Assembly: GCA_020137815.1 (NCBI GenBank)
Contig: CM035351.1
Span: forward strand, 9,362,001 to 9,426,000
DNA: 64,000 bases
From: Hormiphora californensis
Taxonomy: Eukaryota > Animalia > Ctenophora
Direction: 5' to 3'
This document shows, piece by piece, positions 1 through 53,106 of the stretch (its first letter is position 1; each line of letters opens with the position of its first letter). The notes under the pieces were generated by a model. The model saw only the letters and a list, made by a program, of their open reading frames with translations, did no database searches and was not told the origin of the DNA. Made by a program: the position numbers and the translations under genes.

Positions 1-16
1 GTACTGCCCCCTTGAG

Positions 17-891: not shown

Positions 892-2320
892 CTACTTACG
901 GTTTCCACCAAGATTCCACCCAATATTGGGAGGGGTCCCTCCCGCGGCCCCGTACCCACTATACTGGGCTCGAGGGGGTTGCTGCTGTTGGGCAGCTGTG
1001 TTGTAGGTAGGTCTGGGCCGGGCAGGGGCTGTTGATTGTTTTGAGTATAGGGGAGGTGTGTTGGAGAACTCGATACACAGAACATTCACCAGACTAACTA
1101 GGTCGTAACCCTGGGAATAGGGAGTGTCTTTCTTTATACTCAATTCGCAATTACACCAAAATACTAAGTACACATTCTCAATATATATATATGTGTCTGA
1201 TAACTATCTGATTCTGATGATCTCATCATAACCACATTTAACTCAGTACACAGTGTGTGTACTATAACACACCGTTACCACAGGTGAAAATGTATCTCAC
1301 AGCGAACCAGGATCGCTCCTTATATGGCTAATATTCGCTATACTAGAACTACTTACCATGCTTGCCTTCCACTCGTGTAAGTAGGGCAGGTAAACCTTTC
1401 CATTACTGTCCACGATCCTGCTTGGTTTAATCTGCATGTCTTTTGTAGGTGTCACCATAACAAATGGGGCCTGGGGAGGGATAAAACATAATAAATGGGG
1501 CCTGGGGAGAGATAAAACATCACAAATGGGGCCTGGGGAGGGATAAAACATCACAAATGGGGCCTGGGGAGGGATAATACATAATAAATGGGGCCTGGGG
1601 AGGGATAAAACATAATAAATGGGGCCTAGGAGAAGGAGACATCGATATACAGTGATTGTTCATTGTCGGATAGATTAGTGTGAATTACCTGTTCGGGGTA
1701 CTTCATTATGAATCCAAATGTTTACAGGGATATTGTACGTGTTACCCCTGTAGTGCATTGGTATAGTACCAGACAAACATATCATCCTGTATTCTCTCCC
1801 ATTATCATACACTGTGGGGATTAGAAAATCTGTGATACACACCTGCAGCAGCTGTTCACACTGATTTTGAGAGATCATGTTGTTGTTATTTTCAGAAGTC
1901 ATGGAGAGGGTTGCTCGTGCGCGGTATGCTGACATTGAGTGCTTTCATAGTAACACTGTTTGCGCGCCCTACCGTATTTAGAAACGCGTGGTGTGAGATC
2001 CTTGAAGGCAGTGCAGCACGCCTGGAGGTCAGCGATAGCCTTTTGTGGGTAGCGAGACTGAAAAGAGGAGAGGGTGGTTAGATTTACACTAAATGTAGAA
2101 ATATTCACATAATATGAGAAACAGGAAGTCAACTAAATTCCCACTCTAAATTGTGAAGACCTGTCAAAAGGGTCGAAAAAGCGGCATCAGCTCTCTCAAT
2201 TCGAACCATGACTGATGACACACTGCACACGATCTCAGAACTACACTTAATGACGTACTAGATCACACTTACCGGCAGATCCCGGACGGCTGTGTTTATC
2301 ACAGACGTCTTGTCTGACAT
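892..2320 (-). CDS. TSG101: TSG101/Vps23-like UEV-domain protein; 5 exons visible (~2320-2273, 2057-1973, 1812-1689, 1470-1357, 1110-900/892)
   Basis: LSGTIPMHYRGNTYNIPVNIW and PFVMVTPTKDMQIKPSRIVDSNGKVYLPYLHEWK match the TSG101 UEV domain, followed by a Pro/Gln-rich stretch. There is one apparent +1 indel near 1700. Coiled-coil and SB domains are not seen in the window. Confidence 0.85.
1462..1630. repeat. 31-bp tandem repeat x ~6, each copy containing the TSG101 exon-4 splice acceptor
   Basis: Unit aaatggggcctggggagggataaaacataat starts at 1462, 1493, 1524, 1555, 1586 and 1617. Confidence 0.9.
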
Positions 2321-2616
2321 GTCTCTATAAGGGTCGATGGGTTAGGTAGAATAGAAAAAAGAGATAGAGAGAGAGAGGAGAATGTAATGAGAAAATATAC
2401 AAACAAATAAAGAAAATAACACAATTTCAAAATCGCCTCTTTCGTCTAAAACAAGAGCTCTCAATACACACTTCTTTCATGCAGTGTATCTTACACTAAG
2501 TGTTCTGTTCAAACAGGGTCTAACCCTTCTTTACATTTGTCGTGGGGCTGTGGAGAGAGAGAGGGTCGAACAAGACAATCTAACACAACTCAAGAAATAA
2601 ACAGTGTTCAATTTGT

Positions 2617-3028
2617 TCAAGATAACATGGATCTATTAACATAAACTCTATTCCGTTTATCAAGATTGGTTTGTTTCCATTCGTACACTTTCCTCGGCAT
2701 TCTGACAAAGTTCCAAATGATCTTATCTCCCAGGACAAATAATGCCATAGCACTAATACTAACGATAGTGAGCACCACACTAACCCTTAACACATTCGTA
2801 TTCCGGATGTCATATGAGCATTCAGCACTTATTAGCAGCACATGATTTCATCCAACTTTCTGGTACCACGTTATCACATTTGCAGTCCTCAAAATCAACC
2901 GAAGTAGCGATGAAAATCTGCCGGTCGATATCGCTCTTACAGACACACTTACATCTTACATCACCGCTGTGTACAGTAGGGGAGAGAAGGAGGAGGGCCA
3001 GGGGTAGGAAGTAGAAGGGTGACGTCAT
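2617..3028 (-). CDS. TMEM9: TMEM9-family protein (single exon, one apparent frameshift near 2825)
   Basis: Signal peptide, DVRCKCVC, DCKC..VV, CECSY..R, a TM helix and C-terminal ...RSMLS; the product joins ORFs 2822-3028 and 2617-2841. Confidence 0.85.
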
Positions 3029-3349
3029 ACTGCGTGTACTAAACTGGGATAATGGTGAGAGAGTTATTGTAAAGGAGGGCTTAGGAAGTCAAATCAATAT
3101 CTGAGTAGATGACAGCAGGGGAGGAAGAAAACACACAACTATCTTCAGATAAATTAGTAATTTACAAGATTGAAGTAAATAGTTTAAAAGCTGAAAGTTC
3201 AATAAAATCATATTATAAACAGAATAAAATGTAGCACAGTACCGTGCACTGTTTTACCTCTCAAACAAAACAATTCCGGTGTATAACCTTGATCGACCGA
3301 ACCCTCGCAAAATGACGGTGGTATGAGCCACACAAAAGAATCCCACTTT

Positions 3350-5509
3350 TCAAGTTTTGTAGTGTAATTTAACGTGTTTGGTTTTCTCCTCGCTGGTAGG
3401 AAATCCATCTCCACAGATGTGGCAGGTGAAGGGGTATAACTTGTGGATATCCAGGATGTGACTGTGGAGATCCTCTCTCGTCATGTGAGATAATCCACAC
3501 AACTCACAGGGCAGATCAGATCGCGGGTGGGTCACACTACGATGTACCTGGAGACAGACAGATAGAAACTAGAAAGTGGGAGGTTTAACTTGCTAATTAT
3601 TTAGACAACAACAAAAAATCACAGACACAGAATAGGTTAGAAAGCGAAGACACAAAAATACAAAGTTTTAACTAACCAGCAGATAGTCCCTGGTGGGGAA
3701 GATGATATCACACATTTTGCACTTCATATCCTCAATCTTCCTGAATAAGCTGTTTTCATCTCCATCACCAACTTGACACACTTCCCTGATAGGCTCTGGA
3801 CTTGGAGGATCTTGTTCATTGTATACAAAGACATCATCACAAGCCATACATGTAGTACCCATTTGTTTATGTCGCAGTTCTAAATCTGCGCTGGTCTGAG
3901 GTGTGCCAATACCATGGGTAACAAACTCGTGCCTTTTACACGACCACGCTGACTGAAACAAGGAGGGGGGTGGTGAGTTGCGCCTCTTCAAGTGTTCATT
4001 ATCTGGACAACTATTTACCTTGAAGTTACATTTGCATCCTGAACAGTTATATGTCTGGTCGATCTTTGCTACTTCCTCTTTCTGAAATAGAAGTTAAACA
4101 TTAGACAGAACACACAGAACACAATCAACTTGATAGGCACTTGATCTACTGAACCCTCACAGAGCGTGGTGAGAGCCACATGGAACGTACCTTTTTTGGT
4201 GGATTTATTCCAGCTAAATCTTCCAACTCAGGCATTGTTTGAGTAATAAAGGTATTGCCCGAATCAGGCAGCGTTTCAGCCGATCTGTTCTTTGGTTTTT
4301 TTCGGGGATTTTAGTGGTTTAACTGGTTTTGTTTGATAAGTTCTAACAGGCGTTTTTCTTTTTCTCAATTTATTTTGGTATGTCCTAACGACCTTTGTGC
4401 CTATATCTGGATTTTTGGCACCATTTAGTTTGTGACATATAACATAATCTGGCTCGACAAATGCTGACAGAGTTTCCAGAGAAGCCTCTCTACTCTCACT
4501 TGGTTCTCTGCTTTCTACTGGATTAGGGTTTCTGCTTTCTACTGGATTAGGGTTTCTGCTTTCATCCGGAGGAATCTCCTTGCTTGCATTCGGAGTATAA
4601 TGTCGTCTTAATTTGGCAGTAGAATCTCTGTTTGCATTCGGGGTAGGTGCTACATTTACTACTGGATGAGTTTCTCTGGTTGGGTTAGGACCTCGCCTTT
4701 CTTCTCTCCTTGGTTCATGAGAAGGTTCTATGTATTCTTCAAAAGAGGGTTCCACGTTATACTCAGTCAATATAAAAGCATGACCAGGTAGTGAAATTGC
4801 CCCCTCGCCTCCCTCACTATTCTCACTATCATACATGTATTCTTCTGGCACTAGTTCTGCAATCTGACTATCATCATCATCTTCCATTATAACATCTTCT
4901 CCCTCCACTTCCTCTTCCTTTATTTCTGGGGTCGGTCCAGACAACTGGGACGTCTCGATAGTAGGAACTGGCATCTCCTTGGCTTGGGTGTTGGGTCTAG
5001 TTGATATTGTGCTGGGGGCTGATTGGGGCACAGAGGTTGAGGTTGAACTAGGAGCAGGGGTCAGAATAGATTGGACTGGAACAGTAGATGGTCTAGCAGG
5101 GCCAGGGCGACAGATTTTGTCTGGAACAGTAAAATTTGGGGATGGTCTAGCAGGAAGAAGGTCTGGATCTTGTTGCTGTACAGAGGAACTAGCAGGGTCT
5201 GGATCTCGTATAGAAGAACAGCCCAAAACTGACATGGTTCTGGCAGTTTGAGAAGTATTCTGCTCACCTGAAAAAGAGGGTGTATCAGACAAATATTATT
5301 ACACTATTTATTGTCCAGGAAAGCTTGTCTAAGTGAGGGCACATATAATTTTACATCCTGCAACACTTACAATCAGTGTGGTGCCCGTGATGTTTCTCGT
5401 GAAACAAATCAGCCAGTTTGTGGACTATTCTGTCGAAGAGGATCCTCTTACAGACCAGTTCCTCCTCCCAACCCCAACATGACACGGTAGTTTGGGTGGC
5501 TATCTCCAT
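3350..5509 (-). CDS. C2H2 zinc-finger protein with a long low-complexity N-terminal region (~4 exons)
   Basis: CKMCDIIF..H, CELCGLSH..HILDIH and CHICGDGF..HVKLH fingers; GT-AG boundaries near 5370/5268, 4190/4083 and 3675/3548. Confidence 0.7.
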
Positions 5510-5672
5510 CCTGAGGGTTATATGTTAGTTGTTAGGTGAATAGGGTGAAAAGGGAAATTACAAAGTTACAAAGATCTTTTCACCATTCTGAAATCAATAA
5601 GAAACACTCTGATTTTACTAAAAAAATGCTGTGATAACTAAAATATCAAAACTAGTAAAAGAATTAAAAGCT

Positions 5673-6506
5673 CTACTTGATTAAATCAGCTATGCTATCA
5701 ATAACAAATGTAGGTACAGCACTCTCAATAAGATCATCTTTCTTTGAAACTCCTGTCAACACCAAAGCAGAATCAATACCCGAATTAACAGCAAACTGAA
5801 TATCAGTCAATAAGTTATCTCCCACCATAAGGACACGTGATTTGTCAGGAATATCGTGGTCACGTGATATGATATCAAAAAATACTGCACTTGGTTTCCC
5901 TATAACTTTAGGTGTGGTCCCCAGGGCATTGTTCAACCCAGCCAACACTGAACCTGTACCGGGTAGCTGCCGTGTGGGACTAAGAGGATACACAATATCC
6001 AAGTTAGTCGCTATATATTCCGCTCCTCCCTCCCGGATGTATATGAAAGCCTTGGTCATTTTGGTGTGGTTGAAATGTGGATCAAACCCACCCACTACGA
6101 ACTTCACACTTGGATCTAGTTGGAAGTCGTTAAACTCGTAGAAATCCAGGGGTTCGTGGGGCCCGTGTCCAATAAACTCCACCCCACATTCAGTGAGAAC
6201 CTGGGAGAATCCTTTAGACCCGATAAGAAACACCTTCTCACCCTCTTTCATCTGCTCCTTCATGTACATAGCACATGCTATGCCCGAACTGTAAAGACAG
6301 TTGTTGTCAGGCATACTCATCCCCAGGGCCGTTTGGACATGCTGGTTTAATAGTGCTCGGGTTTTAGTACTGTTATTGGTAACCAGGATTACTTTCTTGT
6401 TCTTGCTAAGAAGGGTCGTCAGTACTTCTACAGCACCTGGAATGGGTTCAAAGCCTCTCCACAGGACCCCATCGCAGTCAAACAAGTACACATCATAGTC
6501 CAACAT
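5673..6506 (-). CDS. PGP: HAD IIA phosphatase (phosphoglycolate / pyridoxal-phosphate phosphatase family), intronless
   Basis: FDCDGVLW, VTNNS, GKPS, MVGDNLLTDIQF and LVLTGV motifs. Confidence 0.85.
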   Translation of the reverse strand: MLDYDVYLFDCDGVLWRGFEPIPGAVEVLTTLLSKNKKVILVTNNSTKTRALLNQHVQTALGMSMPDNNCLYSSGIACAMYMKEQMKEGEKVFLIGSKGFSQVLTECGVEFIGHGPHEPLDFYEFNDFQLDPSVKFVVGGFDPHFNHTKMTKAFIYIREGGAEYIATNLDIVYPLSPTRQLPGTGSVLAGLNNALGTTPKVIGKPSAVFFDIISRDHDIPDKSRVLMVGDNLLTDIQFAVNSGIDSALVLTGVSKKDDLIESAVPTFVIDSIADLIK

Positions 6507-6742
6507 ACTAAATGTAGGGAATTGGTTGAAAAGTCGGGTGTAGTCGGGTTAATATAACATAATCATTTTCTAATGCACTAAATATAATATACAGAAAACT
6601 CCAAATCTTCATCAAAACATAACATGTGAAAAAAAGTCCGAATAAAATGTAAACTCAAGATATACAGTATGCCCTAAAATGAATTGGGTAATATTAATTG
6701 ATTTTATCAGATATTATGTGGTAATAGCGGAACATGACAAGT

Positions 6743-7636
6743 CTATTTCCACAAAGTGCCTTTGATAAACTTCTGTCCAATATCGGACTGCCAATTCTTT
6801 GCATTTTCAAACCCGTTCTTGTGCTTTCTGTAATCATCGATTGTCTGCTCTATTTCCTCTTCTGTGTTCATTACAAACGGTCCGTGCTGTACGACTGGTT
6901 CCCCAATAGGCTCTCCAGATATTAGGACAAACTTGGCCACCCCAGATCCGGGGTTACTGACAGACACAGCAGCTCCTGATGTCTCAAATATCACAGTGTG
7001 GTGGGCTGCAATGTTCTGATCCCCAATCTTAACTTCCCCATCAAGAGTGTATATAAAGGTGGTCCAACCCTCGGGAACTGGTTGGGATATTTCTGCACCC
7101 GGCTGCAGCTCTATATCCAGATAATAGGAGGGTGTTCGGGTCCTCACTTCAGACTTCTTTCCCAGGGCCTCTCCGGCAAGAATTTTCACTTTGACACCTC
7201 CCTCCTCCGCAACACGCATCGTCTCAGCCGTTGCCTCTTGGAAGGCTGGTTCTACCATTTTAAACTCGCTCTTCAGGTTGACCCATAACTGCAGTCCCCG
7301 GCACATCTCCTTGCCAGGTATCTCAGAGTGAATTATTCCCCTGCCAGCAGTCATCCACTGCATCCCGCCAGGTCGCAAAACACCAGAGTTTCCCAGGAAA
7401 TCTTCATGGTAGGTCTCTCCTTCAAGCATGTAGGTCACCGTTTCAAATCCTCTGTGAGGGTGATCAGGGAAACCAGCTCCTTCCAGAGATGATCCAACGA
7501 ACTCATCAAGCATTAGAAATGGGTCAATCTGTCCAATCCCCTGACGCCCAATCGATCTTCTGACTCGTGCACCTCTACCTTCCGATTGCCATTTACTGCC
7601 AACAATTTTCTGTATGCCTCTCCGGGTCAGACTCAT
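6743..7636 (-). CDS. PIR: Pirin (bicupin), intronless; probable start MSLTRR at 7636
   Basis: DPFLMLDEF, GFPDHPHRGFETVTYML, QWMTAGRGIIHSE, GLQLWVNL and GPFVMNT motifs. Confidence 0.95.
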   Translation of the reverse strand: MSLTRRGIQKIVGSKWQSEGRGARVRRSIGRQGIGQIDPFLMLDEFVGSSLEGAGFPDHPHRGFETVTYMLEGETYHEDFLGNSGVLRPGGMQWMTAGRGIIHSEIPGKEMCRGLQLWVNLKSEFKMVEPAFQEATAETMRVAEEGGVKVKILAGEALGKKSEVRTRTPSYYLDIELQPGAEISQPVPEGWTTFIYTLDGEVKIGDQNIAAHHTVIFETSGAAVSVSNPGSGVAKFVLISGEPIGEPVVQHGPFVMNTEEEIEQTIDDYRKHKNGFENAKNWQSDIGQKFIKGTLWK

Positions 7637-7901
7637 TCCTGGGTTATCTAAAAAGAACAAAAGTATAACTGCAGGACATATACCAGACATATGAGCAGAA
7701 GAGCAGCTAAAAATATGTTTTTATCAAGCAGCTTTTTGATGTTTTGGCTTTAAAAAAAGGTTTTACAAAAATCAGGTAAAGTATAAATCCATATGGATCG
7801 TTCGGACATTGAATCTCTAAATATCTAAATAATTTATTGGTGAGAGCACTGAGCAGGAAATCCACAACCAAGAATTTGGATCTTTCAAAATGAGCCTCCT
7901 C

Positions 7902-7969
7902 TTGGCCTATGCTATAGGCCCTAGAAGCCGTGGAAAACGCGCGCACTTGGGGTCTGCAGCGCATGCCAA
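7902..7969. mobile_element. 68-bp TTGG...CCAA micro-MITE with 9-bp TSD (Mutator-like)
   Basis: TSD agcctcctc at 7893-7901 and 7970-7978; near-identical inverted copy at 61311-61380. Confidence 0.85.
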
Positions 7970-8134
7970 AGCCTCCTCATTTTATAAAAACTTTTCTGTT
8001 TTTAAAACTTTTCTGTTTTTAAAACAAAATCAATTCCGCGCTGAAGCGATGCTTTTGAACGTTACGCGCGAAATACGAAGTATAAACACTGCATTCTTCC
8101 GCGCGCCGAAGAAATCACAAATTCCGATTTTTTT

Positions 8135-8747
8135 ATAAGGAACCATAATAAAGTTCAAGAGCGTACCCCATCCAAGAGCGCACCACCTCCAAAAGACACC
8201 ACTCCGAGAGCGCACCACATCAAAGAGAGCTCCCCATTAGTGGAAGCTCTTACGGTATTTCCCACGCCCCGTGGGAAAGTTTTCGACCGTGGGAAAGTTT
8301 TCAAACCGTGGGAAAAGAGAGATACATACGATAACTTTAAAAAAATAATTATTTTTTTAAGGTTATTGTATGTATCTCTCTTTTCCCACGGTTCGAAAAT
8401 TTTCCCACGGTCAAAAACTTTCCCACGGGGCGTGGGAAATACCGTATGAGCTTCCACTACATCCAGAAGATACCGCGCGCAGGGGACACCACGCGCAGAA
8501 GAGACCGCACGCGCAAATACAACGCCGCGCTGGTCTCTTCTGCGCGTGGTGTCCCCTGCGCGTGGTATCTTCTGGATGGGGAGCTCTCTTTGATGTGGTG
8601 CGCTCTTGAAGTGGTGTCTTCTGGAGGTGGTGCGCTCTTGGATGTGGTCTCTTTTGGGTGTGGTGCGCTCTCAGGTGTGGTCTCTCTTCGATCGGGTGCG
8701 CTCTTGGGTGCTCTTGGAGGCTCTTGAACTTTATTATGGTTCCTTAT
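8135..8747. mobile_element. Foldback-type MITE with TIR (a)taaggaaccataataaagttcaagagc and probable TA TSD
   Basis: A ~27-bp perfect terminal inverted repeat, internal gagcgcacc/ggtgcgctc subrepeats and a central palindrome. Confidence 0.8.
8238..8459. mobile_element. 222-bp near-perfect palindromic MITE nested in the 8135-8747 element, 3-bp TSD (CAT)
   Basis: TAGTGGAAGCTC...GAGCTTCCACTA flanked by CAT/CAT; the empty site can be reconstructed from the opposite arm of the host element. Confidence 0.8.
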
Positions 8748-8882
8748 TTTGTGGATTTGATTTTTGAAGCCAGTTTCAATTTTTGAACCACTCGTTTCAC
8801 TTTTTGGACTTTTTCCCTCAAGCCCTGAGAACTCATTTGCCCTACTGATGTCTCAAGCGACTTATTTTTCATCAGATTTTTT

Positions 8883-8951
8883 CCCTGCCCGGGTGAATGC
8901 CGAAGGCATTCACCCGGATGCCTTTTTACTTTGTAAAAAGGCATAGCAGGG
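8883..8951. mobile_element. 69-bp CCC...GGG element folding into a T-shaped double hairpin, flanked by TT/TT
   Basis: ccctgc [ccgggtgaatgcc GAA ggcattcacccgg][atgcctttttac TTT gtaaaaaggcat] a gcaggg. Confidence 0.55.
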
Positions 8952-9474
8952 TTAGAATTCGAAAACGACATTTTGGTATACTAACTAATCGGTAGAGGGA
9001 CCATTTTGGTCACACTTTCGTTGCGAGGGGCAACGGTGTAGCAACTAGAGCCGCGCGCACAGTGACGAGCTACTCCTTCATCAAACACCTCATTGACACA
9101 GTTTGATGGACGTGTGTGCGCGCGCCACTCAACAAAACATGAAATGCTCTGCCGCGCGTTTCGCGTGTTACATACACATTTTCATCTTGCGAGTCGAGTG
9201 TGAGATGTTAGATAAGTAGTTAAGTTGGAATGTCAAAAACTGGTTAGCAAGTGTCATGTGATTGGGAGTTAGCTAACTCTAAGCTATGTGAGAAGTTTAC
9301 TGACAGCTAGATCGTATGCATCTCACATTACATTATGACCAAGCCTTGATCCTGTTGGCAGTGACAATGTCACTGACATGTGAAACGGTAGGGCAGGGAA
9401 ACTCAGCATTATGAACACATAATGCAATAATTCTTGTTAACAAATAGGTAGTTGAAAGTTGCTACTCATCTGAT

Positions 9475-10357
9475 ATGGCGTCCGATCCATTCTGCATTGG
9501 CGAACACTGTACTTTGGAGGACTGCCAAACTCTAGATTTCCTCCCAGTTTTATGCTCATTTTGTCAAAAGGTAAATTATCAAATAGGTTCAATGATTCAC
9601 ACTTACCCAATTACCTTATCAACGCAGGTTTTCTGTAAAACTCATTACTCGCCCAATATCCATGACTGCAAATGCATTCCGGAGCATACCGTTAAGACTA
9701 CAGTTGCATCAGCACCATCCAAGCCTTGCTCCATATGTAACCATGTTGGTATGTTTTTCAGACTGTTAGTATGTAGTTTAGTGTATCAATCCCACGATAC
9801 AAGGTGGGCACTAAATTGAACCTTTTCTTCAGTATACATTTTGTTTTTTTTTCAGATATCGTCAATGTGATATGTGAAGAATGTACCAAAGTATTCTGTA
9901 TGTTACATCGAACACTCGAACAGCACAGTTGCCCTTCTGTCGAGGCAAAGAAGTCCAAACCTAGGGAGGTTAGCTCCCGTTGTATCTACAGCCAAGGGTA
10001 CCCAGCTGAAACGAAAGGGTGCTAAATCTTTAGCATTGGAACGAAAAGTAATGTTGATGAAAATGAAAAACAAAAGTTCTGGTCCATCTTCAATCCCTCA
10101 AAGTGAAAGGATTTATTTGAATGTAACTGCAGAAGGGGGTAAACAGTGTTATTATCCACTGTAGTAATCTATGGACTGTGGGGAGATCAGTGGACGCTAT
10201 CTCGGATCACATGGGTTTGAAGAACAACAATGATCAGGCGGGTGCCGATCAGTTAGTTATGGAATACCAAGGGGAGGTGTTAGTGATGGGTGACAAGTTG
10301 TGTGATACCACCCAGAGTGGTGATACTGTTAACCTGAAGTATGTCCCTCCTAGCTGA
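9475..10357 (+). CDS. ZFAND1: AN1-type zinc finger protein 1 (3 exons, apparent frameshifts in exon 3)
   Basis: IGEHC..DC..LDFLP.C..C..FC..H and C..C.K.FC..HR...H.C fingers; KVMLMKMK..G..SIPQSERIY; WTVGR..D ubiquitin-like C-terminus. Confidence 0.85.
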
Positions 10358-10520
10358 GAGGTCTGTTTATATAATGAATTGGGGAGTATTTATAAGTTGT
10401 TTATTTGGAGTTTGTTATTTTCAGTTTTCGTATTATATGACAGATAGGTGTACTGCTATCCAAGTGTTTGTCTTGTTGTTATTCCCCCCACTCCACTAAC
10501 TACCAGTTATAATATCAGTG

Positions 10521-11496
10521 ATGTCAGACCCGGCAGCAAGGGCTGCTTCCCTAATGGCGGAGGGGAAGAAGAAGTTGGGTGGTGGGGGAGGATTCTTCTC
10601 TAAAATGTTTGGAGGCGGATCCGGTACTGAAGATGCCATTGATCTCTTTTGTCAGGTACTTTATTTGCAATGTACTTCCTTGTTATAGTAGCAGCTGATT
10701 AGTAACCACCACACAGTGATCTAAATCCCTCTCTTTCCCAGGCGGCAAACAACTACAAGATGGCCAAGATGTGGTGTGAGGCAGGGGCAGCATTTCAGAA
10801 GGCTGCCTCTCTGAACAGTAGCATCAGTAAGCACGAGTCAGCCTCTCAGTATGTTGAGGCTGCAGGGTGCTTCAAGAAGAACAACACAGAACAAGCTGCT
10901 AAGTGTCTGCCAGGAGGCTATACAAGGTCTATGAGGAGCTTGGGAAGGTTTGGAATTGCAGCAAAGCATTATGGAACCCTGGGGGAGCTGTTTGAGAACG
11001 AGAGAGATCCCAATATTGAGCTGGCTGTTGTGAATTATGAGAAGGCAGCGGACTACTACGAGGGAGAGGAGAGTTACAGCAGTGCTAACAAGTTCAAACT
11101 AAAGGTGGCACACTATAGCGCCCTCACTGATACAGATGCATGGGTACACCAGGGCAGTTAGTATCTACGAGGAGGTGGCAGCCTAGAAGTATTGATAACT
11201 CCCTCCTGAAGTGGTCTGCCAAGGAGTACTACTTCAAGGCGGTGTTGTGTTGTATGTGTGTGAAGGGGGAGAGCAGGGCAGCCATAGCACGGTACGAGGA
11301 GGAGTTCCCTGCCTTCCTCAACACTAGAGAACACAAACTGGTGTGTGGGTTACAGGAGGCTATTGACGAGAGTAACAAGGAGTCATACACAGAGCTGGTA
11401 CAGGAATTTGATAATATCTCACCCCTCGATAAATGGTTCACATCCATCCTGTTGAAGATTAAACGAGGTCTAGATGAGGAACCGGACTTGTGCTGA
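10521..11496 (+). CDS. NAPA: alpha-soluble NSF attachment protein (2 exons, apparent frameshifts)
   Basis: AAN.YKMAK.W, GRF.IAAKH, YEKAADYYEGEES.SSANK, LLKWSAKEYYFKA and ISPLDKWFTSILLKIK. Confidence 0.92.
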
Positions 11497-11892
11497 GTGA
11501 TGTGCTTGTGTGGGGATATTCAACATGAACTGAGTATACTGATCTCTCTCTCTTATAATCTCTACTTTTGATGTTTTGATGTTATTCGCCATTATATTGG
11601 TGTGGTATAATAATTGGTTTGCTTTGATGCAGCAAATTAACACTGTGCTGGCCCCCCAAATAATGGTAGTTTGTTTAGATGTTAACCTGTTTGTTGTACA
11701 ATTTTAACAGCACATCAAGTTGTCTTCTTTTTGGTTTCTTCCTCTATATTATGCCCCCTCGGACCCACCCTCCCCCTTCTCCCCTTCCTTATTCTTCTCC
11801 CCAGTCCCCTCCTAACCATCTCCCTCCCTCTTCGTTCTCCCTCTAACACCCGATCACAGCTACGCGTGTCATGTTTACCATAGCGCCACCAC

Positions 11893-33398: not shown

Positions 33399-33484
33399 CC
33401 TGTACACAACTCAGGTAACCATTAGTGACCACTACAAGTAACACCTAGTTACAACTGCTAACAACTAGTAACCACTAGTTAGTT

Positions 33485-35934: not shown

Positions 35935-35996
35935 TTTGGTTTAATAAAAATAAAAGTTCTCTGTGATTTATAGTTTCTGAGTTGGTGAGATTTGAG

Positions 35997-37876: not shown

Positions 37877-38099
37877 GGCTAGGAAGGTGGAGAGGTGTGA
37901 GAGGTTGTCATGGTTATAGGGAACTATGGCTAGTGGTAGAAGAAGGGTGAACCGCAGTATAGAAAGAGAATGGGGAAGGTTTGGGATAGTAAAACGCGAT
38001 AGATAAAACATGCTTTACACAGACCTTTGTACAAACAGTATAAAATATCCCCCTCTAAAAAATGTAAACCTCGATTAAAAGTCACCTCCCCCAACTAAG

Positions 38100-38172
38100 T
38101 TGGTTACGAAATAATAACCCCTTGCCTCGCGACTTTCGCGCGCTGGCGAGGGAGGGGTAACTTCGTTACCAA
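38100..38172. mobile_element. 73-bp TTGG...CCAA micro-MITE with 9-bp TSD; empty site in the duplicate copy
   Basis: TSD ccaactaag at 38091-38099 and 38173-38181; a single ccaactaag at 32759-32767. Confidence 0.9.
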
Positions 38173-38192
38173 CCAACTAAGTCTGTACACCT

Positions 38193-41172: not shown

Positions 41173-41220
<48 letters not shown>

Positions 41221-43365: not shown

Positions 43366-43450
<85 letters not shown>

Positions 43451-46400
43451 TCTCTATCACACTCTCTTTCACTGTCTTATTCCATTATATTCACCATTTA
43501 TATCCCTGATCCCGGCAGCAGGCAAAGGTGTAAGTGGGTCACCTTTCCCGCCAACTAATTTCAATTAGTTTTTGGCTTAATTTAGGTCCCTTTTTGGTTT
43601 CTAATCGCAGCATGACATTATTTCATGATGTAATATTGTCGAAATGATGCGTTATATGAGAAACGAGACGAATTTCTGTGAAAATCGTATTTTAGACGTC
43701 ATAATGACGTCATTTGACGTAATTAGTGACGTCGTAACGACGTAATTGCATCACGATATATTTTTAATCAATACCCCAAAGGAGCTTGTAAAGTTTCATT
43801 GGCCACAGTGGTCAGGAAAAGGAGTTTTTGCTCGAAAAACGTTCAATTTGCTGAATTTTTCGTCAAATTTTTGACTTCCGACGCGATTTAAGGGCTCAAA
43901 ATGATAAGCTACGAAAATTCGCTATATAGTATCTGAAAGTTCAGACGATTTGCCGGTAACGAATTTTCGTCAAATCAGAAATCGGAAAACGTCTTTAGGG
44001 TGCTAGAGGCGTTTGAAAAAATGTGGTCGGTCTCGCGCAATGACGTCACTCGTGACGTCATTGCGCGCGTCATAGGTAAGATGGAGAGTCGCCACCCAGA
44101 TGGGTACATGCACGAGACAATTGTCTGTCGAATGCCGCTTGGTTTAAGGTCGTACGATCTCTGGTTCGTCTCAAACTGGGACCAAACGGAAGGTAACAAA
44201 GCGTCTATCCATGTATATATATATGTATCAACCTAGTTATCCCCACACTGAATTTTCTGTTTTGGGGGTGGTGTTATAACTTTTGAACAAAAAGAGCTAG
44301 CCACTTGAAATTTTTACCATCGATAGAGATCTACAAGAAGCTTCTAAGTACAAAATTTCAGCTTCCTAGCTCTTCCGGTTCGGGAGTTATGGCATGTCAA
44401 AAAGTGCCAAAATGGGCTAAAAGTATGAAATAACTATATATACGCTGTGAGCAAGCGGGCCGTTTTTGGGGGAAATTTTTTTCGGGAGATGGATGGGGTC
44501 ACCTTTGCGCTTGCCAGCGCAGTGATGTATATATCAACCTAGTTATCCCCACACTGAATTTTCTGTTTTGGGGGTGGTGTTATAACTTTTGAACAAAAAG
44601 AGCTAGCCACTTGAAATTTTTACCATCGATAGAGGTCTACAAGAAGCTTCTAAGTACAAAATTTCAGCTTCCTAGCTCTTCCGGTTCGGGAGTTATGGCA
44701 TGTCAAAAAGTGCCAAAATGGGCTAAAAGTATGAAATAACTATATATACGCTGTGAGCAAGCGGGCCGTTTTTGGGGGAAATTTTTTTCGGGGGATGGAT
44801 GGGGTCACCTTTGCGCTTGCCAGCGCAGTGATTAGGAGCGTCAAAGTGGGAAAGTTTCATAGAGATAAGGAGGGTCAAAGTGGGAAAGTTTCTTAGATAT
44901 TAGGAGCGTCAAAGTGGAAAAGTTTCTTAGAGATAAGGAGGTTCAAAGTGGGAAAGTTTCTTAGAGATAAGGAGGGTCAAAGTGGGAAAGTTTCTTAGAG
45001 ATAAGGAGGATCAAAGTGGGAAAGTTTCTTAGAGATAAGGAGGGTCAAAGTGGAAAAGTTTCTTAGAGATAAGGAGGTTCAAAGTGGGAAAGTTTCCTAG
45101 AGATAAGGAGGGTCAAAGTGGGACAGTTTCTTAGAGATAAGGAGGGTCAAAGTGGGAAAGTTTCTCAGAGATAAGGAGGGTCAAAGTGGAAAAGTTTCTT
45201 AGAGATAAGGAGGTTCAAAGTGGGAAAGTTTCTTAGAGATAAGGAAGGTCAAAGTGGAAAAGTTTCTTAGAGATAAGGAGGGTCAAAGTGGGAAAGTTTC
45301 TTAGAGATAAGGAGGGTCAAAGTGGAAAAGTTTCTTAGAGATAAGGAGGGTCAAAGTGGGAAAGTTGGGTAGACATAAGGAGGGTCAAAGTGGGAAAGTT
45401 TCTTAGAGATAAGGAAGATCAAAGTGGGTAAGTTTCTTAGAGATAAGGAGGGTCAAAGTGGGAAAGTTTCTTAGAGATAAGGAGGTTCAAAGTGGGAAAG
45501 TTTCTTAGAGATAAGGAGGGTCAAAGTGGGAAAGTTTCTTAGAGATAAGGAGGGTCAAAGTGGGAAAGTTTCTTAGAGATAAGGAGGGTCAAAGTGGAAA
45601 AGTTTCTTAGAGATAAGGAGGTTCAAAGTGGGAAAGTTTCTTAGAGATAAGGAGGGTCAAAGTGGGAAAGTTTCTTAGAGATAAGGAGCGTCAAAGTGGG
45701 AAAGTTTCTTTGAGATAAGGAGGGTCAAAGTGGGAAATTTTCTTAGAGATAAGGAGGGTCAAAGTGGGAAAGTTTCTTAGAGATAAGGAGGGTCAAAGTG
45801 GGAAAGTTTCTTAGATATTAGGAGCGTCAAAGTGGGAAAGTTTCTTAGAGATAAGGAGGGTCAAAGTGGGAAAGTTTCTTAGATATTAGGAGGGTCAAAG
45901 TGGGAAAGTTTCTTAGAGATAAGGAGGGTCAAAGTGGGAAAGTTTCTTAGAGATAAGGAGGGTCAAAGTGGGAAAGTTTCTTTGAGATAAGAGGATCAAA
46001 GTGGGAAAGTTTCTTAGAGATAAGGAGGGTCAAAGTGGGAAAGTTTCTTAGAGATAAGGAGGGTCAAAGTGGGAAAGTTTCTTAGAGATAAGGAGGGTCA
46101 AAGTGGGAAAGTTTATTAGAGATAAGGAGGGTCAAAGTGGGAAAGTTTCTTAGAGATAAGGAGTAGTTATCACACTACCCACCAGTTGATATGATGACAT
46201 CTGCAACAAGACTAGCACCATCTAGCTCATGCTCTGTATCAGCAGGTGTATCAGGTAGGTGTTCCACGTGTACCACATTGTATCCATCCTCAGCCAGCAG
46301 GTTGGATAATGCACACGTGTTACTATCACGTACCTATATAGGACTGAATAAATAAATGAATTGCCTGAGGGGATTTTGAAACCCCAGGAAATAATTATTA

Positions 46401-48204
46401 TCTGTTTACCTGTCCGTATGTTAGTGTCTGTTTAGGATCTGATACCAGCTCGTTACCAGTACTCAGTATTGCTACACGTGGTTTCCTCCTCACCAGCACC
46501 TCCCCATACCCCTGACAAGAGAGGAGGGCTAACTCAGCAGCATTTAACACAGTCCCAGCTCTGATCAACTCTTCTCCTACACTGATATCAGATCCAACAG
46601 GTCTAATATCAGTACCTGAGGGGTGGTGATGTTAGATTTGATATGATCACCCACTAGAGTGATACAATCTATCGATAATAACACCATATATACGGTATAT
46701 ATACCTGGTGTTACAGCTGATAGTATCTCAATAAGGGCCTCCTCCCCCTCCTTAGTGCTCTCAGCTAGCCGTGTATCCTCTACCTGTACCACTGCATCAG
46801 CACCATGTGGAACTGGGGCTCCTACATGATAGTAGTGGGGGTAACAGTTAGAGGTTTGTGTAGGAGTTTGAATACTCATCATACCGCTAGGTCCTAAGGA
46901 TTACTGAACTGAAAACCAATAACTGTTCCAACTGTTCTTTACACCCACTAATAGTTCTACCTGTAGTGACTCTGTAGATGGTGCCAGGTTGAAGGGCTGC
47001 AGGGACTGTCTCCCCAGTTGCAGATACCCCACTAACTCTGTATATACCAGGACCATCCGCAGAACACACCGCGTACCTGTTTAGTGGGTTAGTGGGTTAG
47101 TTTTGGTGTGTGTAAAGGTGTCATATTGTGTTAGTGTTGGAGAGGTTGAGTTTGAATTGTGGGCCAAGTATCACCCTTGAAACTATCATTTAGGGACTTT
47201 TCAAATCTAACGCTTACCCATCCTTGATGCTTGCACGGTAGTTTGGCAGGTTTTCCTTAGCAATGATAGATTCTGCAGTAACAGAGCCCCTGGCCTCCCC
47301 ACTCTGTACGGATAGTGACACAGTACCAGATGTCTGGCTTGCTAGTCGTGTTTGCTCCTTTATTGTAGAAACAGCCTCCTCGACAGATACCATGGGATAG
47401 GGTGACTGTCGGTCCCTGAATGCTACACCTCTCCTGCTTTTATCACCACTGTGGTTACCATGGTTACCACTATGGTTACCATGGTTACCACTCTTGTGAG
47501 GGCACACATGGTGATGCTTGTTACCACCAGCGTGGTGTGCTGATACAGCGGGTATGTTGTCACTGATCAGATCCAGGATGTGCTTTAGGACTGGCTCTAT
47601 TACATCTAGATTCTCTTTAACAGCTTTCTTACTGCCAGGTAAACAGATAACCAGACAACGCCCCTTTACACCTACACGAAATAGTAGGCTTTATTTGGCT
47701 TAGTTTAGAAAAGTATTGAAGTACATAATTATGATAATGGACAAGAGCACGACGTACCTACTAGTGGGTTAGACAGCATAGCAAATGGTGAGTGTTGGAT
47801 GCACTTTGCTACTATAGCACTCATCACCCCTGTAGCTTGGTAGTCTAGTAATGGAGCTAGTGTCCTGACTGTAACATCTCGTGGTGCCAAACCAGTTCCA
47901 CCCGTACTGATAAACAATCCTGGGCCACCTTCCTACAGGGTGTTATATTAGTAGAAAACAGGGTATTATATCTCATTCATTTCGTGTGCTAAAATATTAC
48001 ACATTGTGTTCGTACCATGTTAGTAGCGCGTACAACTTCATCAAAATGTGTCATGATCTCCAAACGATCATCTGGGCAGGTTGCCAGGGAAGTGAGACAC
48101 TCTGGGTTCCATTGTAGGAGTCTAGTGGAGATATAGGGCCCAGAGGTGTCTTCTGCCTGACCCCTAGAGACCCTGTCACTGACAGTCAGGATCTTAACCA
48201 ACAT
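38193..48204 (-). CDS. GPHN: Gephyrin (MogA G-domain + MoeA E-domain), multi-exon, with a ~7.4-kb repeat-filled intron
   Basis: ILTVSDR...EDTSG, STGGTGLAPRDVT, CFPGSKKAVKE, R.SPYPM, NLP.YRASIKDG, GADAVVQVEDT and MKPGKPTTF. Confidence 0.9.
40824..44832 (+). mobile_element. Helentron/DINE-1-like non-autonomous rolling-circle element (partly duplicated; middle part garbled)
   Basis: Inserted at a T|T in the satellite without a clear TSD. Has subTIR aaaggtgaccc / gggtcaccttt, 3' hairpin tgcgct-tgcc-agcgca, an inverted copy of the 5' end around (CT)n, and a ~300-bp tandemly duplicated 3' end. Confidence 0.65.
41061..41174. mobile_element. 114-bp CpG-rich palindromic MITE (CCCTAC...GTAGGG) inserted in a (CT)n microsatellite
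   Basis: Near-perfect hairpin flanked by TC/TC. Confidence 0.75.
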
Positions 48205-48494
48205 GATAGAGCTATTATAGGGTGGTGATTAGTTGGTAGCATAGGAGGCAAGGGCTCCCGTGCTATTTGCAGGAGGGGTTGCAGGCTAGGATTAAGAAAG
48301 ACACGAGTTATAATTATTATTAGACCATTTTAACCAGTCATCTAATCATATAATAGTGTGTGGGATAACAGAATAAATATCACATATTACATTATAATGT
48401 ATTATGATCTCATGAAATAATAAAAAGGTAAAAAGAACTTCGTAAAAATACACCACTCCAGCTAGGAGAGGGGGCACCACCACTCCACACTTCT

Positions 48495-51400
48495 TCACCA
48501 GGAGACCTCTCCGAATCGTGCCACTAGGTTATCCTGGGTCTGCAGATCCTTCTGTACCTTCATTCTCATGTAGAAGATGGGGCAATCCCTGCTGGTACAT
48601 AGAACCTCCTCGTGGAGACTACCCTGGCATCTTTGGCACTGGGTCCACAACCTGCAGGATAGTTGAATTGTTCATACGTGTAACACACAATGGTATACGG
48701 GTTTGGAGTTGCAATAACAGTCCGTAGACAAAGATAGGATAACAAACTCTTGTTTCCTTACTTGTTGAACTTTTCCTCCAGCGAGTAAAGTGTAGATATC
48801 TCTTTCTGATAGATATCGGATGCCTTTGACTTGCAGTTATCACACACCGCGGATCCTAAACAACAGGGGATCAGTGGTCCAAAATACAATTGATTTCCAA
48901 TGTTGAGTGATAATATTACCTTCTCGTTTCAGAACAGCTTTGCACCCAACACACGTTGCTTTCTTCTTGGTAAATGCAGATAGAGCCCCTACAGAGCTGT
49001 GCACTACACTACACACTCTGGTGTGTTCACCTGGGGAAGGAGGGGACTGTTAATTGGGGGGGGGGGGGTTAGAATACCAACAAAATAATGAGTGTGTTGG
49101 AATAATTCTGAATAGAAGTTTACATCAGACTCAAATAGCATGACTGTGTGTGTGTTTAATCTAACAGGGCCCTACACGGGTAATTAGCATCATTCCTCTA
49201 AGTGCATCAGGAGCCCCCTTCTGTTACCCCCACCACCCTCAAAATAGAGAGGCATCATTTACAAGTGCAGTTTATATATTGACATGCACCAGTACACATT
49301 ATATATTTCCCTGCAATAAACCCTTACTCACTGCCTTTGTAGTTCTAGAAGTATTTAGGAAGGTGCCCTAACCACACATTACTTGATTAGTTCACGCCCT
49401 AGTAACCATGGTAACCGCCTTGTTTTAATATTTATTATACAACCCTTGATATTATCATCCCCATATTGACAGTGTGTTGTGTATTACCTTTACAGTGTGT
49501 TGTGTATTACCTTTAAGTAGAGTGCTCTCCGCCTTCTCCCCCAGTATCGGCTCAAAGATTCTCAACAGGGGCTTACTAAGCTGGTTGCTCAGATAGTACA
49601 CAGTGTCAATAGGCAGGTTGTTCTCTAGCACATACAGAGGATCCTCCGACTTCATGTAGGTCGGATCCTTCTTAGCTCCAGTAACAATGACATAGGGGAC
49701 CCGATCACCTAGTTTAGGAGCACTCCCCGGATCTCTCTTCTTCATTTTATCAGCCAAGATGGTATGGCATTGTTTGTTAGCGTAGTCATCCCCTGTCTTA
49801 GTGAGCTCCTTGGTGATAATCAGTTGGGAGATGTCAATCCTGTTGCAGAGCAGGTCGCTAATTACTGATTTGGTGTAATTAACTGCAGCAGTTGGGTTCC
49901 TCTCAATCAGCAGCTTCTCCAGACAAGTACTGATGAGATCAGAGGCAAGGCGGCAGTTGTCCCTCCTGACTGTTTCTATTCCTTTACAGTCCATCTTATC
50001 GTGTTTATCAGGGGACGAGGAGAAGTAGAGGCCTGCATATCTCTTCTTATTGATCAACAGATAAGGGAAGTATACCTTCTCAAACTCTAACTTTACGGGA
50101 CTAGGGAACTTCTCAGAGATGGATTTAGCTGCCAGCTCACCCATCTTCATTGCCTCTGCCACTGAGTCAACATTGAACTTTACCATGACTGAATCAGTAT
50201 CACCGTATATAACTTTAGCATCAGATTGGAATCCATTCTCTTTGTTGTAGTTAGACTCAACCAGCTGCTTAGTTCGCTCTATCATCTCTCTCCCATAGGC
50301 AGTCACTGATTTGGAGATCTGGAGGCAGGGTAGTTTCCCTACACTAGCACCAGTGAACCCATACACAGAGTTACAAGAGATCTTCAGAGCCAACTGACGT
50401 CCATCCAGGACCTGTTTCTTGAACGGATCAGTCTCCTGGGCTAGCTCTCTCTTAGCCTTCTTCCTTGCCCCTAGCAGGTCACTTAGAATCTCCGGAAGGA
50501 CTCCATGACGTGTCTCTGACTTTACAAAGTAGTCTCCAGAGGGGGTCTGGACATACTGGGCAGGATCCAGCTTGTTCCTCTCCTCTGGGGTCAGGAGGGT
50601 AGAGTAACAAAGGTTGTGAGCCTGCATGATGGAGGGGTAGAGGGATGCGAAATCTAGTGTTGCTATGGGGGTGTCATAGTAACCCCTGATAGGCTCAATA
50701 ACAGTTGCTCCTTCATACATATCAGCAGCAGTGTTGGACTGGTATACGGGTATTATGAGATCTTGCTCCTTACACTTCCTGAGTAGCTGTGAGAACACCT
50801 TGACCTGTTGACCCCGTGTCATTAGATAGGAGATGGGAACACCCGTTACACGAGCCATCTCCATATAGTTGATAAGGCACATCAGCTTGTTCAGTAGTCG
50901 GAGTGGCAGGAGAGCATCCTTCATACAGTACACAGCAAGCCTCCTTCTAGTTACCTCGTTACCGTTCTGTAGATCTGTAATGATGCTGTGGTGAACATCT
51001 TCCTTCTGTTCTAACAGGAAGTGGTAGGAAACTGCATTCAGGGAGTAGGATCTGAGTTTGTAGTTACGGAGCAGAATAGGGAGGAGATCAAATTGTACCC
51101 GCCCCTCAATGTTCATCACTTTGTTAGATCTCTTACCATAAGCTTTACTCTCAAATATCCGCTCCTTCACCATAGTTCTCTCTTTGGGTATCCTACCCAG
51201 GTATGGGAATGTCCCAACCTTAAGGGCCTCAGCCCTCTCAATCAGATATGGTACATCAAAGTTGTTGATGTTATAACCAGTTAGGATATCAGGATCTACC
51301 TCCCTAACAAAGTCAGACCAGGCTCTCAGCAACTCTTTCTCTGTTTCGAAACTCCTCACATCAGCACCCACAATGGGAGAACAGGTGTTTAGTACGAACA

Positions 51401-52484
51401 CGTTCCTGATAAAGGGCTCTGTGCTCCCCTGGTACATGACCATGTTAGCTATCTGGATCACGGGGTCTTTAGAGGGCTCCGGAAAGATCCCCTTCCTACC
51501 CGCACACTCTATATCAAAACTAAGGATCCTGGCCGGGGCTATTTTACCCCACTCTCCCTCGGTCGATAGGGACACTAGATCTCTCCACCCACAGGTGACC
51601 TCGTACTGACAGGCCGATATTTTCTTCTCGTTCCGCACCATGTTATACTTCTTAGCTGGTAGTTCTATCCAGTTACAACCCACCACGTCTGTATCTATCA
51701 TGAAGCGGTTCTCAAAGTCTACATTTGCCTCGAAACTAGTGTAGGAGCGGTCCACGAACTGGCCAGTTGTGAACCCCCTATCTAGAATTCTCTTAGCAGG
51801 AGCAATATGTTGTGGGAGAGCGGTGGTAATTTTCAGGTAGGGTAGTTTTTTGTTACCATGATAACCATAAATACTTTCCTTAGTGACAATTTCAACGGAT
51901 AGCACTATTTTATCCACCTGTTCCCTTTTCTTTGCCTGATCCGCCTTCAACACAACATTCAGATCCTCCATGAACTTGCCACAGTGTTCCTCCTTGAACC
52001 CAGGGGGACAGGGCACGTAGAAGTAGGGACAGTACCCGTGTACTGAGCAACACACACTGTTACCATTCTGTGTCACTCCAAACATTCTGATAACAGGGGT
52101 GAAGGCGTCCTGTACCGGTGAGAGGAGGGGGTGTGCTGGGGCCAGGTAGTAGTCAAGATCAAGTTGCTGGAACACTAGTTTCTCTACTGCTGTATTCAGA
52201 CGGGGTGCGTCAGGTCTACACAGCTGATCAGTGGGGGTGGTAACAGTATCTGACCCCATTGAGTGAGATGTGGAAACAGAGCTGAAGGAGTCTCTTGATG
52301 CCCCATCGTCACCCCCATCCTGCATGTTGGACAGGGTCCAAGATGCTGGCTCCACGTGATTGGTTGTCTTGGCAACCCAGCTGTCCTCCATCGTATCAGC
52401 TGCCCAATCATCTTCTTGCTCAGTTATTTTTAGCTTTTTGGCACCATCCGTCAAGCTTTCTCCAGCAGATCGTTTGTCCGCCAT
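48495..52484 (-). CDS. POLD1: DNA polymerase delta catalytic subunit (exon 1 52484-49511, then ~49010-48920, 48855-48762, 48651-48495)
   Basis: [37 protein letters not shown], and C-terminal CysA/CysB ([23 protein letters not shown]). Confidence 0.98.
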
Positions 52485-53106
52485 ACCGTTTTACCGGGAG
52501 TGAGCTAAAATGGGAGGGTGTGTCATCATTAGATAGATAGAGAGAGGGAGAAAGGTATATAGAGATAGAGATAGTGAGAGAGAGAATTGAGAAACTTCGG
52601 GAAACTTGTTACATGACTGAAATGGAGAAAAAGAAAAAGAATGAGATAGAAAGGACACCTGTTGCGACAAGAAGATCCTTTCCAATTAGCACTGCTCCGA
52701 TATTCTCCTTTTTGTGGTTCAGAGGCTCGAGTGTGTGTGCCATTGTGAATTATGAATACTTAGCACCTACTACACATGTGCCCCAACAACCTCACTGAAA
52801 TTAATACTGTTCTACTCAATGCCTCCCCCGTTATTAAATATAGTAAGGGACGCCATCTGTTGTATCACGTTGCGAATATATTTTTTGCAGTTCCTATAGT
52901 TAGTACGTAGTAGGGGGGGGGACGACAGCTGTAACAATACCGCTATAATACCACTATGGTGATATTTTTGGCACTTCAACCAAATCCAAGGTTTTTGTGA
53001 CATCGAAACTGTGTGGTCTCACTCTTTTTGGCCATCTCTACTTTATATTTGTACTCTTTGAATGTTCAACTCACAGCCTGTGTAGCACATTGAATTGTTT
53101 CTAGTA

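Follow-up and report, generated by a model that had tools for sequence, protein, structure and literature searches.

Same-strand gene runs in the ctenophore Hormiphora californensis as candidate operons resolved by spliced-leader trans-splicing

In the window (i.e., the whole 64 kb stretch of Hormiphora californensis DNA that we analyzed), three same-strand runs of five, three and six unrelated housekeeping genes would, with a probability that we put at roughly 0.6, each correspond to a polycistronic RNA resolved by spliced-leader (SL) trans-splicing. Three SL-resolved operons had been proposed in a first-pass annotation, and its two components now stand on different footings. Leader trans-splicing at the acceptor-like YAG trinucleotides preceding follower genes, meaning those downstream of a run head, is likely because SL trans-splicing has already been published for ctenophores, the host among them, and because these sites look unlike the acceptors of its own introns. 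The polycistronic state of the runs is the best reading of their short gaps and of one apparent case of kept linkage, that of pirin and PGP.

In the mechanism that we propose, each run would be transcribed as one polycistronic RNA from a promoter presumed to lie at the run head. The upstream RNA would undergo cleavage and polyadenylation within the U-rich half of each gap, while the spliceosome would join the leader of the host to the YAG, giving each follower its capped 5′ end and thereby removing the upstream AUGs of the gap. Head genes would probably be trans-spliced as well, from ordinary outrons. The features of the runs are as follows, with negative numbers counting nucleotides before the ATG.

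Run 1
6743..7636, minus: pirin, run head, single coding exon (Pfam); acceptor-like TAG 7648-7650, 11 nt before the ATG
6507..6742, minus: gap pirin-PGP, 236 nt; acceptor-like TAG 6508-6510, 1 nt before the ATG
5673..6506, minus: PGP-like HAD phosphatase, single exon (Pfam); start agrees with relatives
5510..5672, minus: gap PGP-ZF, 163 nt; CAG 5511-5513, 1 nt before the ATG; two CTAAC upstream
3350..5509, minus: C2H2 zinc-finger (ZF) gene, 5 exons (Pfam); predicted start
3029..3349, minus: gap ZF-TMEM9, 321 nt; top-scoring acceptor CAG 3044-3046 (-15), other YAGs at -10 and -1
2617..3028, minus: TMEM9-like gene (weak Pfam match); one assembly frameshift
2321..2616, minus: gap TMEM9-TSG101, 296 nt; long pyrimidine tract followed by TAG 2325-2327 (-4)
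788..2320, minus: TSG101, UEV domain (Pfam)
7637..9474, no strand: divergent gap between runs 1 and 2, 1838 nt; presumed promoter region, with inverted-repeat elements

Run 2
9475..10357, plus: ZFAND1, run head (Pfam); the last 12 nt before the ATG lack YAG, weak site at -27
10358..10520, plus: gap ZFAND1-NAPA, 163 nt; top-scoring acceptor CAG 10504-10506 (-14), second at -2
10521..11496, plus: NAPA, alpha-SNAP (Pfam); assembly frameshifts
11497..11892, plus: gap NAPA-SBDS, 396 nt, with a long pyrimidine tract; top-scoring acceptor CAG 11857-11859 (-33), also TAG at -9
11893..15702, plus: SBDS, final gene (Pfam)

Run 3
48495..52484, minus: POLD1, run head (Pfam); acceptor-like TAG 52505-52507 (-20)
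48205..48494, minus: gap POLD1-GPHN, 290 nt; TAG 48212-48214 (-7)
38193..48204, minus: gephyrin, GPHN (Pfam); a 7.4 kb intron contains a 34-nt satellite
37877..38192, minus: gap GPHN-CBR, 316 nt; TAG 37879-37881 (-2), the strongest site
37046..37876, minus: carbonyl-reductase-like SDR (CBR), copy 1, intact single exon (Pfam)
36751..37045, minus: gap CBR-MMS22L copy 1, 295 nt; TAG 36757-36759 (-6)
34298..36750, minus: truncated 5′ copy of MMS22L; nested same-strand gene inside, 35491-35934
28458..34291, minus: tandem duplication, second unit (identity to 34298-39700, 89-94%)
26155..30916, minus: MMS22L, complete copy (weak Pfam match); TAG 30923-30925 (-6)
29622..30065, minus: nested same-strand gene for a 147-aa membrane protein, within the first intron of MMS22L; weak CAG at -26
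26021..26154, minus: gap MMS22L-INTS9, 134 nt; TAG 26022-26024, 1 nt before the ATG
22949..26020, minus: INTS9 (PDB); stop codon positioned visually, the last exon being frameshifted
22814..22948, minus: gap INTS9-TRAPPC9, 135 nt; YAGs at -10, -20 and -23, all weak
16568..22813, minus: TRAPPC9-like gene, last of the run (weak Pfam match); start and stop uncertain

As for gene identities, most of the names first given are backed by Pfam (pirin, PGP, C2H2 ZF, TSG101 through its UEV domain, ZFAND1, NAPA, SBDS, POLD1, GPHN and CBR), and INTS9 by a PDB search in which its residue 14 aligns with residue 14 of human INTS9, while TMEM9, MMS22L and TRAPPC9 are weak matches below Pfam cut-offs. The start of TRAPPC9 depends on a presumed frameshift error, its acceptor is weak, and neither PDB nor Pfam confirms its first exon. 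A search with POLD1 showed no ctenophore among the 120 matches listed, and sequences identical to pirin, PGP or CBR were absent from the collection searched. TSG101 likely extends beyond the left edge of the window, across an intron containing an opposite-strand sulfotransferase.

All 11 stop-to-ATG gap lengths listed above agree exactly with those measured in the first-pass annotation. One of them belongs elsewhere than was thought: the 295 nt between CBR and MMS22L are correct but precede the truncated MMS22L duplicate, the gap of the complete copy being 786 nt. The second unit of the duplication comprises the 3′ part of GPHN, CBR copy 2 (31703-32534, with one extra base) and the start of MMS22L, and its two gaps, of 244 and 786 nt, retain their acceptor ends. 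Across the duplicated block, insertions sit in the 3′-UTR half of the gaps while the acceptor end is conserved; the GPHN-CBR gap itself includes an 82-nt insertion that is absent from its duplicate.

Gap length could be compared with the three divergent gaps of this one 64 kb window. Even the longest of the 11 gaps (134-396 nt) is exceeded by each divergent gap (622-2685 nt; p = 0.006), and also by 472 nt, the sum of half the shortest divergent and half the shortest convergent gap. Eight of the 11 satisfy the 300-bp rule applied to candidate operons of flatworms (PMC12582326), which is measured between transcript ends whereas our gaps run from stop to ATG. The nematode Ur motif TAYYTT, sought ~50 nt before the acceptor, occurs in 3 of 11 gaps with 4.8 expected, hence no excess, and no common 5-mer stood out. 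No AATAAA or ATTAAA is found in any of the 11 gaps, and its absence was dropped as an operon sign since five of six terminal genes are also without it; cleavage sites consequently cannot be placed. CpG density is 17.7 per kb in the gaps versus 40.2 in the divergent regions, a difference confounded with inserted elements, for which reason CpG or CGCG was abandoned as a promoter mark; the signal is also not seen at the POLD1 head, and a convergent gap shows it.

All nine AG/ATG contexts originally quoted are present in the sequence, and the claim that a YAG lies close to follower ATGs holds throughout: it is found within 12 nt in 11/11 followers, versus 38.6% of 1718 other ATGs (p = 3e-5), and shuffling the last 60 nt of each gap gives an expectation of ~21% per gap (product 1.8e-8). 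For TMEM9, NAPA and SBDS, the quoted sites exist, but the best-scoring acceptors lie further upstream, at -15, -14 and -33. The branch-like motif said to be frequent is there at the level of introns, CTAAY occurring at 5/11 followers and 18/59 introns. When scored against 59 hand-placed intron acceptors, 8 of the 11 followers have an intron-like site (at or above the 10th percentile) within 40 nt, versus 13.5% of the 1718 other ATGs (p = 1e-5), and follower tract scores show no difference from introns (p = 0.61) while exceeding those of heads (p = 0.01). Start sites nevertheless differ from introns in three respects: TAG is used at 13/18 starts versus 11/59 introns (p = 5e-5; 5/7 for the strongest sites, p = 0.007), the AG-free zone is longer (median 53 nt versus 29 nt; p = 0.001), and G content at -90 to -30 is lower (0.10 versus 0.17; p = 0.0008). 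The start-codon sites thus look like an acceptor class different from that of the host's own introns. The gap layout consists of a U-rich half, then a long G-poor, AG-free tract, and finally a YAG adjoining the ATG.

The resemblance of these tracts to intron acceptors would also be expected if the YAGs were the ends of ordinary cis-spliced 5′-UTR introns, with a small first exon within the gap. A GT scoring higher than the 10th percentile of donors does lie at least 57 nt upstream in 8/11 gaps, but this is at chance level (shuffles expect 5.7) and none reaches the median donor score. Donor-like GTs are not depleted either, and the term "unpaired" that the first-pass annotation used for these acceptors is presumptive. 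Moreover, the best donors of the two shortest gaps lie 5 and 28 nt past the upstream stop codon, and the TAG bias and long AG-free zone are unlike introns, which makes this explanation improbable. We consider it even less probable that a leader exon at the run head is cis-spliced to alternative acceptors, one per gene, as a shared first exon. For Hormiphora, 718 copies of the leader are described, together with first exons that genes seem to share, the latter suspected by the authors of being artefacts of mapping (PMC8527503). However, Hormiphora-type leader ends are not in excess in the window (3 matches, 3.1 expected), and head regions have no exon in common, their only shared sequence being a 71-nt element with target-site-like repeats. 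An Rfam search of the window gave 0 matches.

Two further observations concern annotated relatives. One speaks against the operon reading: in pirin record P0241 (95% identical), the gene call begins at an ATG further upstream and reads across the AG, in a contig that could be DNA or RNA. N-terminal extensions in gene-called relatives, for instance the "FRW" that precedes the start of lobate pirin, are consistent with an upstream acceptor, but they were set aside as too degenerate to count.

Acceptors are not confined to followers. A YAG within 12 nt is also seen in 4/6 run heads or single genes, and head scores exceed background (p = 0.002). Since heads and single genes carry acceptors too, albeit weaker, the acceptor alone is no mark of a polycistron. 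Every gene might then be leader-trans-spliced from its own compact promoter, located in the gap or in the 3′ end of its neighbor, the runs being packed single-gene units with short outrons. This explanation, which we judge rather unlikely, is also favored by the genome-wide leader addition described for Hormiphora (PMC8527503), by strand clustering that is not significant by itself (11/16 neighbor pairs; p = 0.105), and by a POLD1 head without any CpG mark setting it apart from the gaps. It is countered by the stronger acceptors of followers relative to heads, by gaps of 134-163 nt in which an AG-free tract of 40-140 nt and a 3′ UTR have to be accommodated as well, and by the apparent linkage of pirin and PGP, the only pair for which we tested whether linkage is kept.

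Gene order is poorly preserved between distant ctenophores (PMC8527503). In other ctenophore records, pirin and PGP relatives lie on contigs that agree exactly in four lengths (42,949; 251,725; 761,219; and 965,195), a match that comes without distance or strand. These contigs probably come from two lineages, in one of which PGP is 94% identical to Bolinopsis PGP. Among the clusters listed, two of six long pirin contigs and eight of 12 long PGP contigs have no counterpart. A 559-aa Pleurobrachia model (P0361) was ruled out as a pirin-PGP fusion, as it is pirin twice, and a metagenome scan with PGP returned four loci at 29-46% identity, none useful.

If the runs are indeed polycistronic, ctenophores would provide an independent and very deep case bearing on whether polycistronic transcription is an invariable outcome of trans-splicing, and their promoters, start sites and enhancer loops would be assigned to genes differently. 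It would also offer a possible mechanism for the many same-strand nested genes left unexplained by the Hormiphora authors. A broader and tentative extrapolation is that in ctenophores, the earliest-branching animals in current trees, much of the housekeeping genome might be organized in leader-resolved operons of up to 30 kb, whose acceptor, biased to TAG and with a long tract, would be distinct from that of introns. Some pairs might have been kept since the cydippid-lobate split, and the same reaction might free same-strand intron-nested genes from the RNA of their host.

Leader-resolved operons are already known in nematodes, tunicates, flatworms, chaetognaths and Hydra. Judging from their sequence, the ctenophore runs are a probable addition to this class. 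According to a 2021 paper, ctenophore operons were unreported (PMC7986045), and our literature search found no later report. SL trans-splicing in ctenophores, with the leader on at least 56% of Hormiphora long reads, would explain acceptors before the ATG; it was reported without operons, a word absent from the main text of that paper (PMC8527503). Nematode SL2-type operons have a 50-200 nt cleavage-to-trans-splice distance with which the spacing here is compatible, but the ctenophore gaps have neither an Ur-motif excess nor AATAAA (PMC7668243). Chaetognath operons are similar in being housekeeping runs of up to nine genes, less than 250 bp apart, that need no operon-specific leader; they belong to another phylum and are backed by leader-bearing reads, while the ctenophore runs are known from sequence (PMC12460157). 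The RFC140-flp operon of Hydra, likewise a non-bilaterian and one with several leaders, also joins unrelated genes, less than 417 nt apart, with a T-rich stretch, a pyrimidine tract and an acceptor before the second gene (PMC3273482). There, the gap was shown to be promoterless and the acceptor to be necessary, which goes beyond the genomic evidence for the ctenophore runs; these are longer, with up to six genes, than the bicistronic Hydra operon (PMC3273482).

The map of the window, for which all 64 kb were read together with three-frame translations of most coding regions, contains three head-to-tail series of genes on the same strand (runs), which we consider candidate operons.

Genes of the window
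Run 1, minus strand: pirin, PGP, C2H2 gene, TMEM9, TSG101
Run 2, plus strand: ZFAND1, NAPA, SBDS
Run 3, minus strand: POLD1, gephyrin (GPHN), carbonyl-reductase-like gene (CBR), MMS22L, INTS9, TRAPPC9
Beyond the three runs: GPCR, WD40/RING gene, SCAMP-like start

Most gene names are backed by Pfam, TMEM9, MMS22L and TRAPPC9 falling under the curated cut-offs, while the SCAMP-like start had no match in a Pfam search. Homology supports the start codons of PGP, pirin and INTS9, but not those of the C2H2 zinc-finger gene (ZF), MMS22L and TRAPPC9. Since several genes of the assembly carry single-base indels, the INTS9 stop and TRAPPC9 start were placed by eye. In POLD1 (49511-52484, minus strand), the first coding exon alone spans 3 kb and there are only three introns. 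A 138-codon open frame within TRAPPC9 (21304-21720, minus strand), with no Pfam match, is a miscalled exon or a further nested gene, and an intron of TSG101 apparently harbors a nested sulfotransferase gene (1-727, plus strand) in opposite orientation.

Within runs, genes are tightly packed. All 11 stop-to-ATG gap lengths listed in the first-pass annotation were reproduced exactly when recomputed from the sequence. Their median is 290 nt, and each of them is shorter than any of the divergent gaps, which measure 622, 1838 and 2685 nt (P = 0.006, or 0.010 with duplicate gaps added). All are also below 472 nt, the lowest value obtained by adding half of a divergent gap to half of a convergent one. 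Strand clustering by itself is not significant (11 of 16 neighbor pairs on the same strand, P = 0.105); all statistics refer to this 64-kb window.

As for the gap ends, the earlier claim of a YAG just before nearly every ATG is borne out for all 11 followers (genes after the first, or head, of a run), which have one within 12 nt of the ATG. The corresponding figure is 38.6% for 1718 other ATGs (P = 3e-5), a null with repeats masked and ATGs up to 45 nt downstream of known intron acceptors excluded; shuffling the final 60 nt of every gap gives 1.8e-8 for 11/11. When sites were scored with an acceptor matrix from 59 introns placed by hand without RNA confirmation, the 10th-percentile intron score was reached within 40 nt by 8/11 followers, 13.5% of the null and 0/7 heads, single and nested genes, duplicate copies being excluded from YAG and score counts alike. 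The individual acceptors quoted need correction for TMEM9, NAPA and SBDS, whose best-scoring site sits farther upstream. In tract score, followers do not differ from introns (P = 0.61) and surpass heads (P = 0.01), which themselves still score above background (P = 0.002).

Start sites nevertheless differ from intron acceptors. TAG is found at 13 of 18 starts vs. 11 of 59 introns (P = 5e-5), to which chance YAGs may contribute in part, and at five of the seven strongest start sites (P = 0.007). Their AG-free zone is longer (median 53 vs. 29 nt, P = 0.001), and they contain less G from -90 to -30. Between -140 and -80, T makes up on average 44-51% of the gap sequence, and it yields to C close to the AG, a composition consistent with a 3' UTR that runs into an extended acceptor tract. 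In 8/11 gaps (5.7 expected from shuffles), a GT scores above the 10th percentile of donors, none of them reaching the median score. The acceptor traits argue against ordinary 5'-UTR introns, while leaving some room for them. Addition of a spliced leader at the predicted acceptor sites is, in our judgment, likely; in Hormiphora, the accessible text of PMC8527503 reports the leader on 56% of long reads and 718 genomic leader copies.

The main rival to polycistronic transcription is that the runs are tightly packed trans-spliced genes, each with its own promoter. CpG density is 17.7 per kb in gaps, which is intron-like, and 40.2 in divergent regions, but we gave it no weight because inserted elements account for part of the signal, which is missing at POLD1-GPCR and present in one convergent gap. 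AATAAA/ATTAAA occurs in none of the 11 gaps (2.6 expected) and is also missing in five of six terminal genes, while the nematode Ur motif shows no enrichment (3/11 gaps vs. 4.8 expected). The sequence pattern of runs, short gaps and acceptor-like sites is real, and polycistronic transcription is its best reading, with a probability of about 0.6. As separate observations, 16 of the 17 stop codons checked are not followed by AATAAA/ATTAAA, and the cleavage signal in this animal may be non-canonical; a cluster of CGCG (15990-16270) in the convergent gap between SBDS and TRAPPC9 has no Rfam match.

Relatives of pirin and PGP were examined for linkage. PGP is closest to an entry named Pleurobrachia bachei (91%), followed by one of Bolinopsis microptera (57%), other named taxa among the best 120 matches listed reaching at most 42%, and pirin is 97% identical to a P. 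bachei model across 253 residues. These identities place the window in a ctenophore near Pleurobrachia. Members were looked up for 8 clusters of pirin and 12 of PGP, the latter from about 25 ctenophore-like PGP matches; relatives of the two genes share four longest-contig sizes (42,949, 251,725, 761,219 and 965,195), equal size being taken as the same contig, which says nothing on distance or strand. Above 20 kb, these are four of six pirin and four of 12 PGP contigs. As three of these four trace back to the same clusters, they are counted as a single lineage. On the 42,949 contig, PGP shares 94% identity with the PGP of the lobate Bolinopsis and groups with it. This linkage is notable because blocks shared by Hormiphora and Mnemiopsis hold four genes at most (PMC8527503, accessible text) and their lineages diverged about 180 million years ago (PMC12221973, accessible text).

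Part of run 3 is present twice and includes a nested gene.

Duplicated and nested features
28458-39700: duplicated content (GPHN 3' part, CBR, MMS22L 5' part)
29622-30065 and 35491-35934, minus strand: nested 147-aa gene

The stretch 28,458-34,291 repeats 34,298 to about 39,700 (~5.8 kb, 89-94% identical), and could reflect either a genuine tandem duplication or a pair of haplotypes. The truncated MMS22L copy is preceded by the 295-nt CBR-MMS22L gap, and the complete one by a 786-nt gap and a CBR copy bearing one extra base. In both gap pairs, the large insertions fall in the half with the 3' UTR, leaving the acceptor end in place, which shows that gap spacing tolerates insertions. The GPHN-CBR gap carries an 82-nt insertion (38100-38180) whose ends are inverted and which is missing in the duplicate. 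Lying on the MMS22L strand within intron 1 of that gene, the nested gene codes for a membrane protein (147 codons) and has an open frame in both copies, a full-length relative (P0386) at 53% and a weak CAG 26 nt 5' of its ATG, and is assigned to no family. Trans-splicing would be a simple predicted route for freeing it from MMS22L RNA.

The window also contains several repeats. Two different divergent (promoter-like) gaps each hold a GC-rich element of 71 nt (7899-7970 and 61310-61381) that has short inverted ends, is flanked by direct repeats and is possibly a miniature transposon with a regulatory motif. More than 110 copies of a 34-nt satellite lie in a gephyrin intron (33450-34290, 38880-40830 and 44830-46170), and the sequence at about 41.8-43.4 kb, degenerate and rich in errors, resembles raw-read gap fill. 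At 61703-62935, an inverted repeat of 514 nt with perfectly matching arms is accompanied by another copy of 211 nt and is possibly an assembly artefact or foldback element.

Operons and polycistronic mRNAs are described as not reported in ctenophores in the accessible text of PMC7986045, and our literature search, judged mostly by listing and covering few subscription journals, found no paper reporting ctenophore operons. "Operon" and "polycistron" do not occur in the accessible text of PMC8527503, the supplements of which may bear on the point, nor does "operon" in that of PMC12221973 (see also PMC10282587, PMC12582326, PMC13498776, PMC7668243, PMC6005172 and PMC12220107, in part). The candidate runs would work in the same way as the operons described, in the accessible texts, for Hydra (PMC3273482) and for chaetognaths (PMC12460157).
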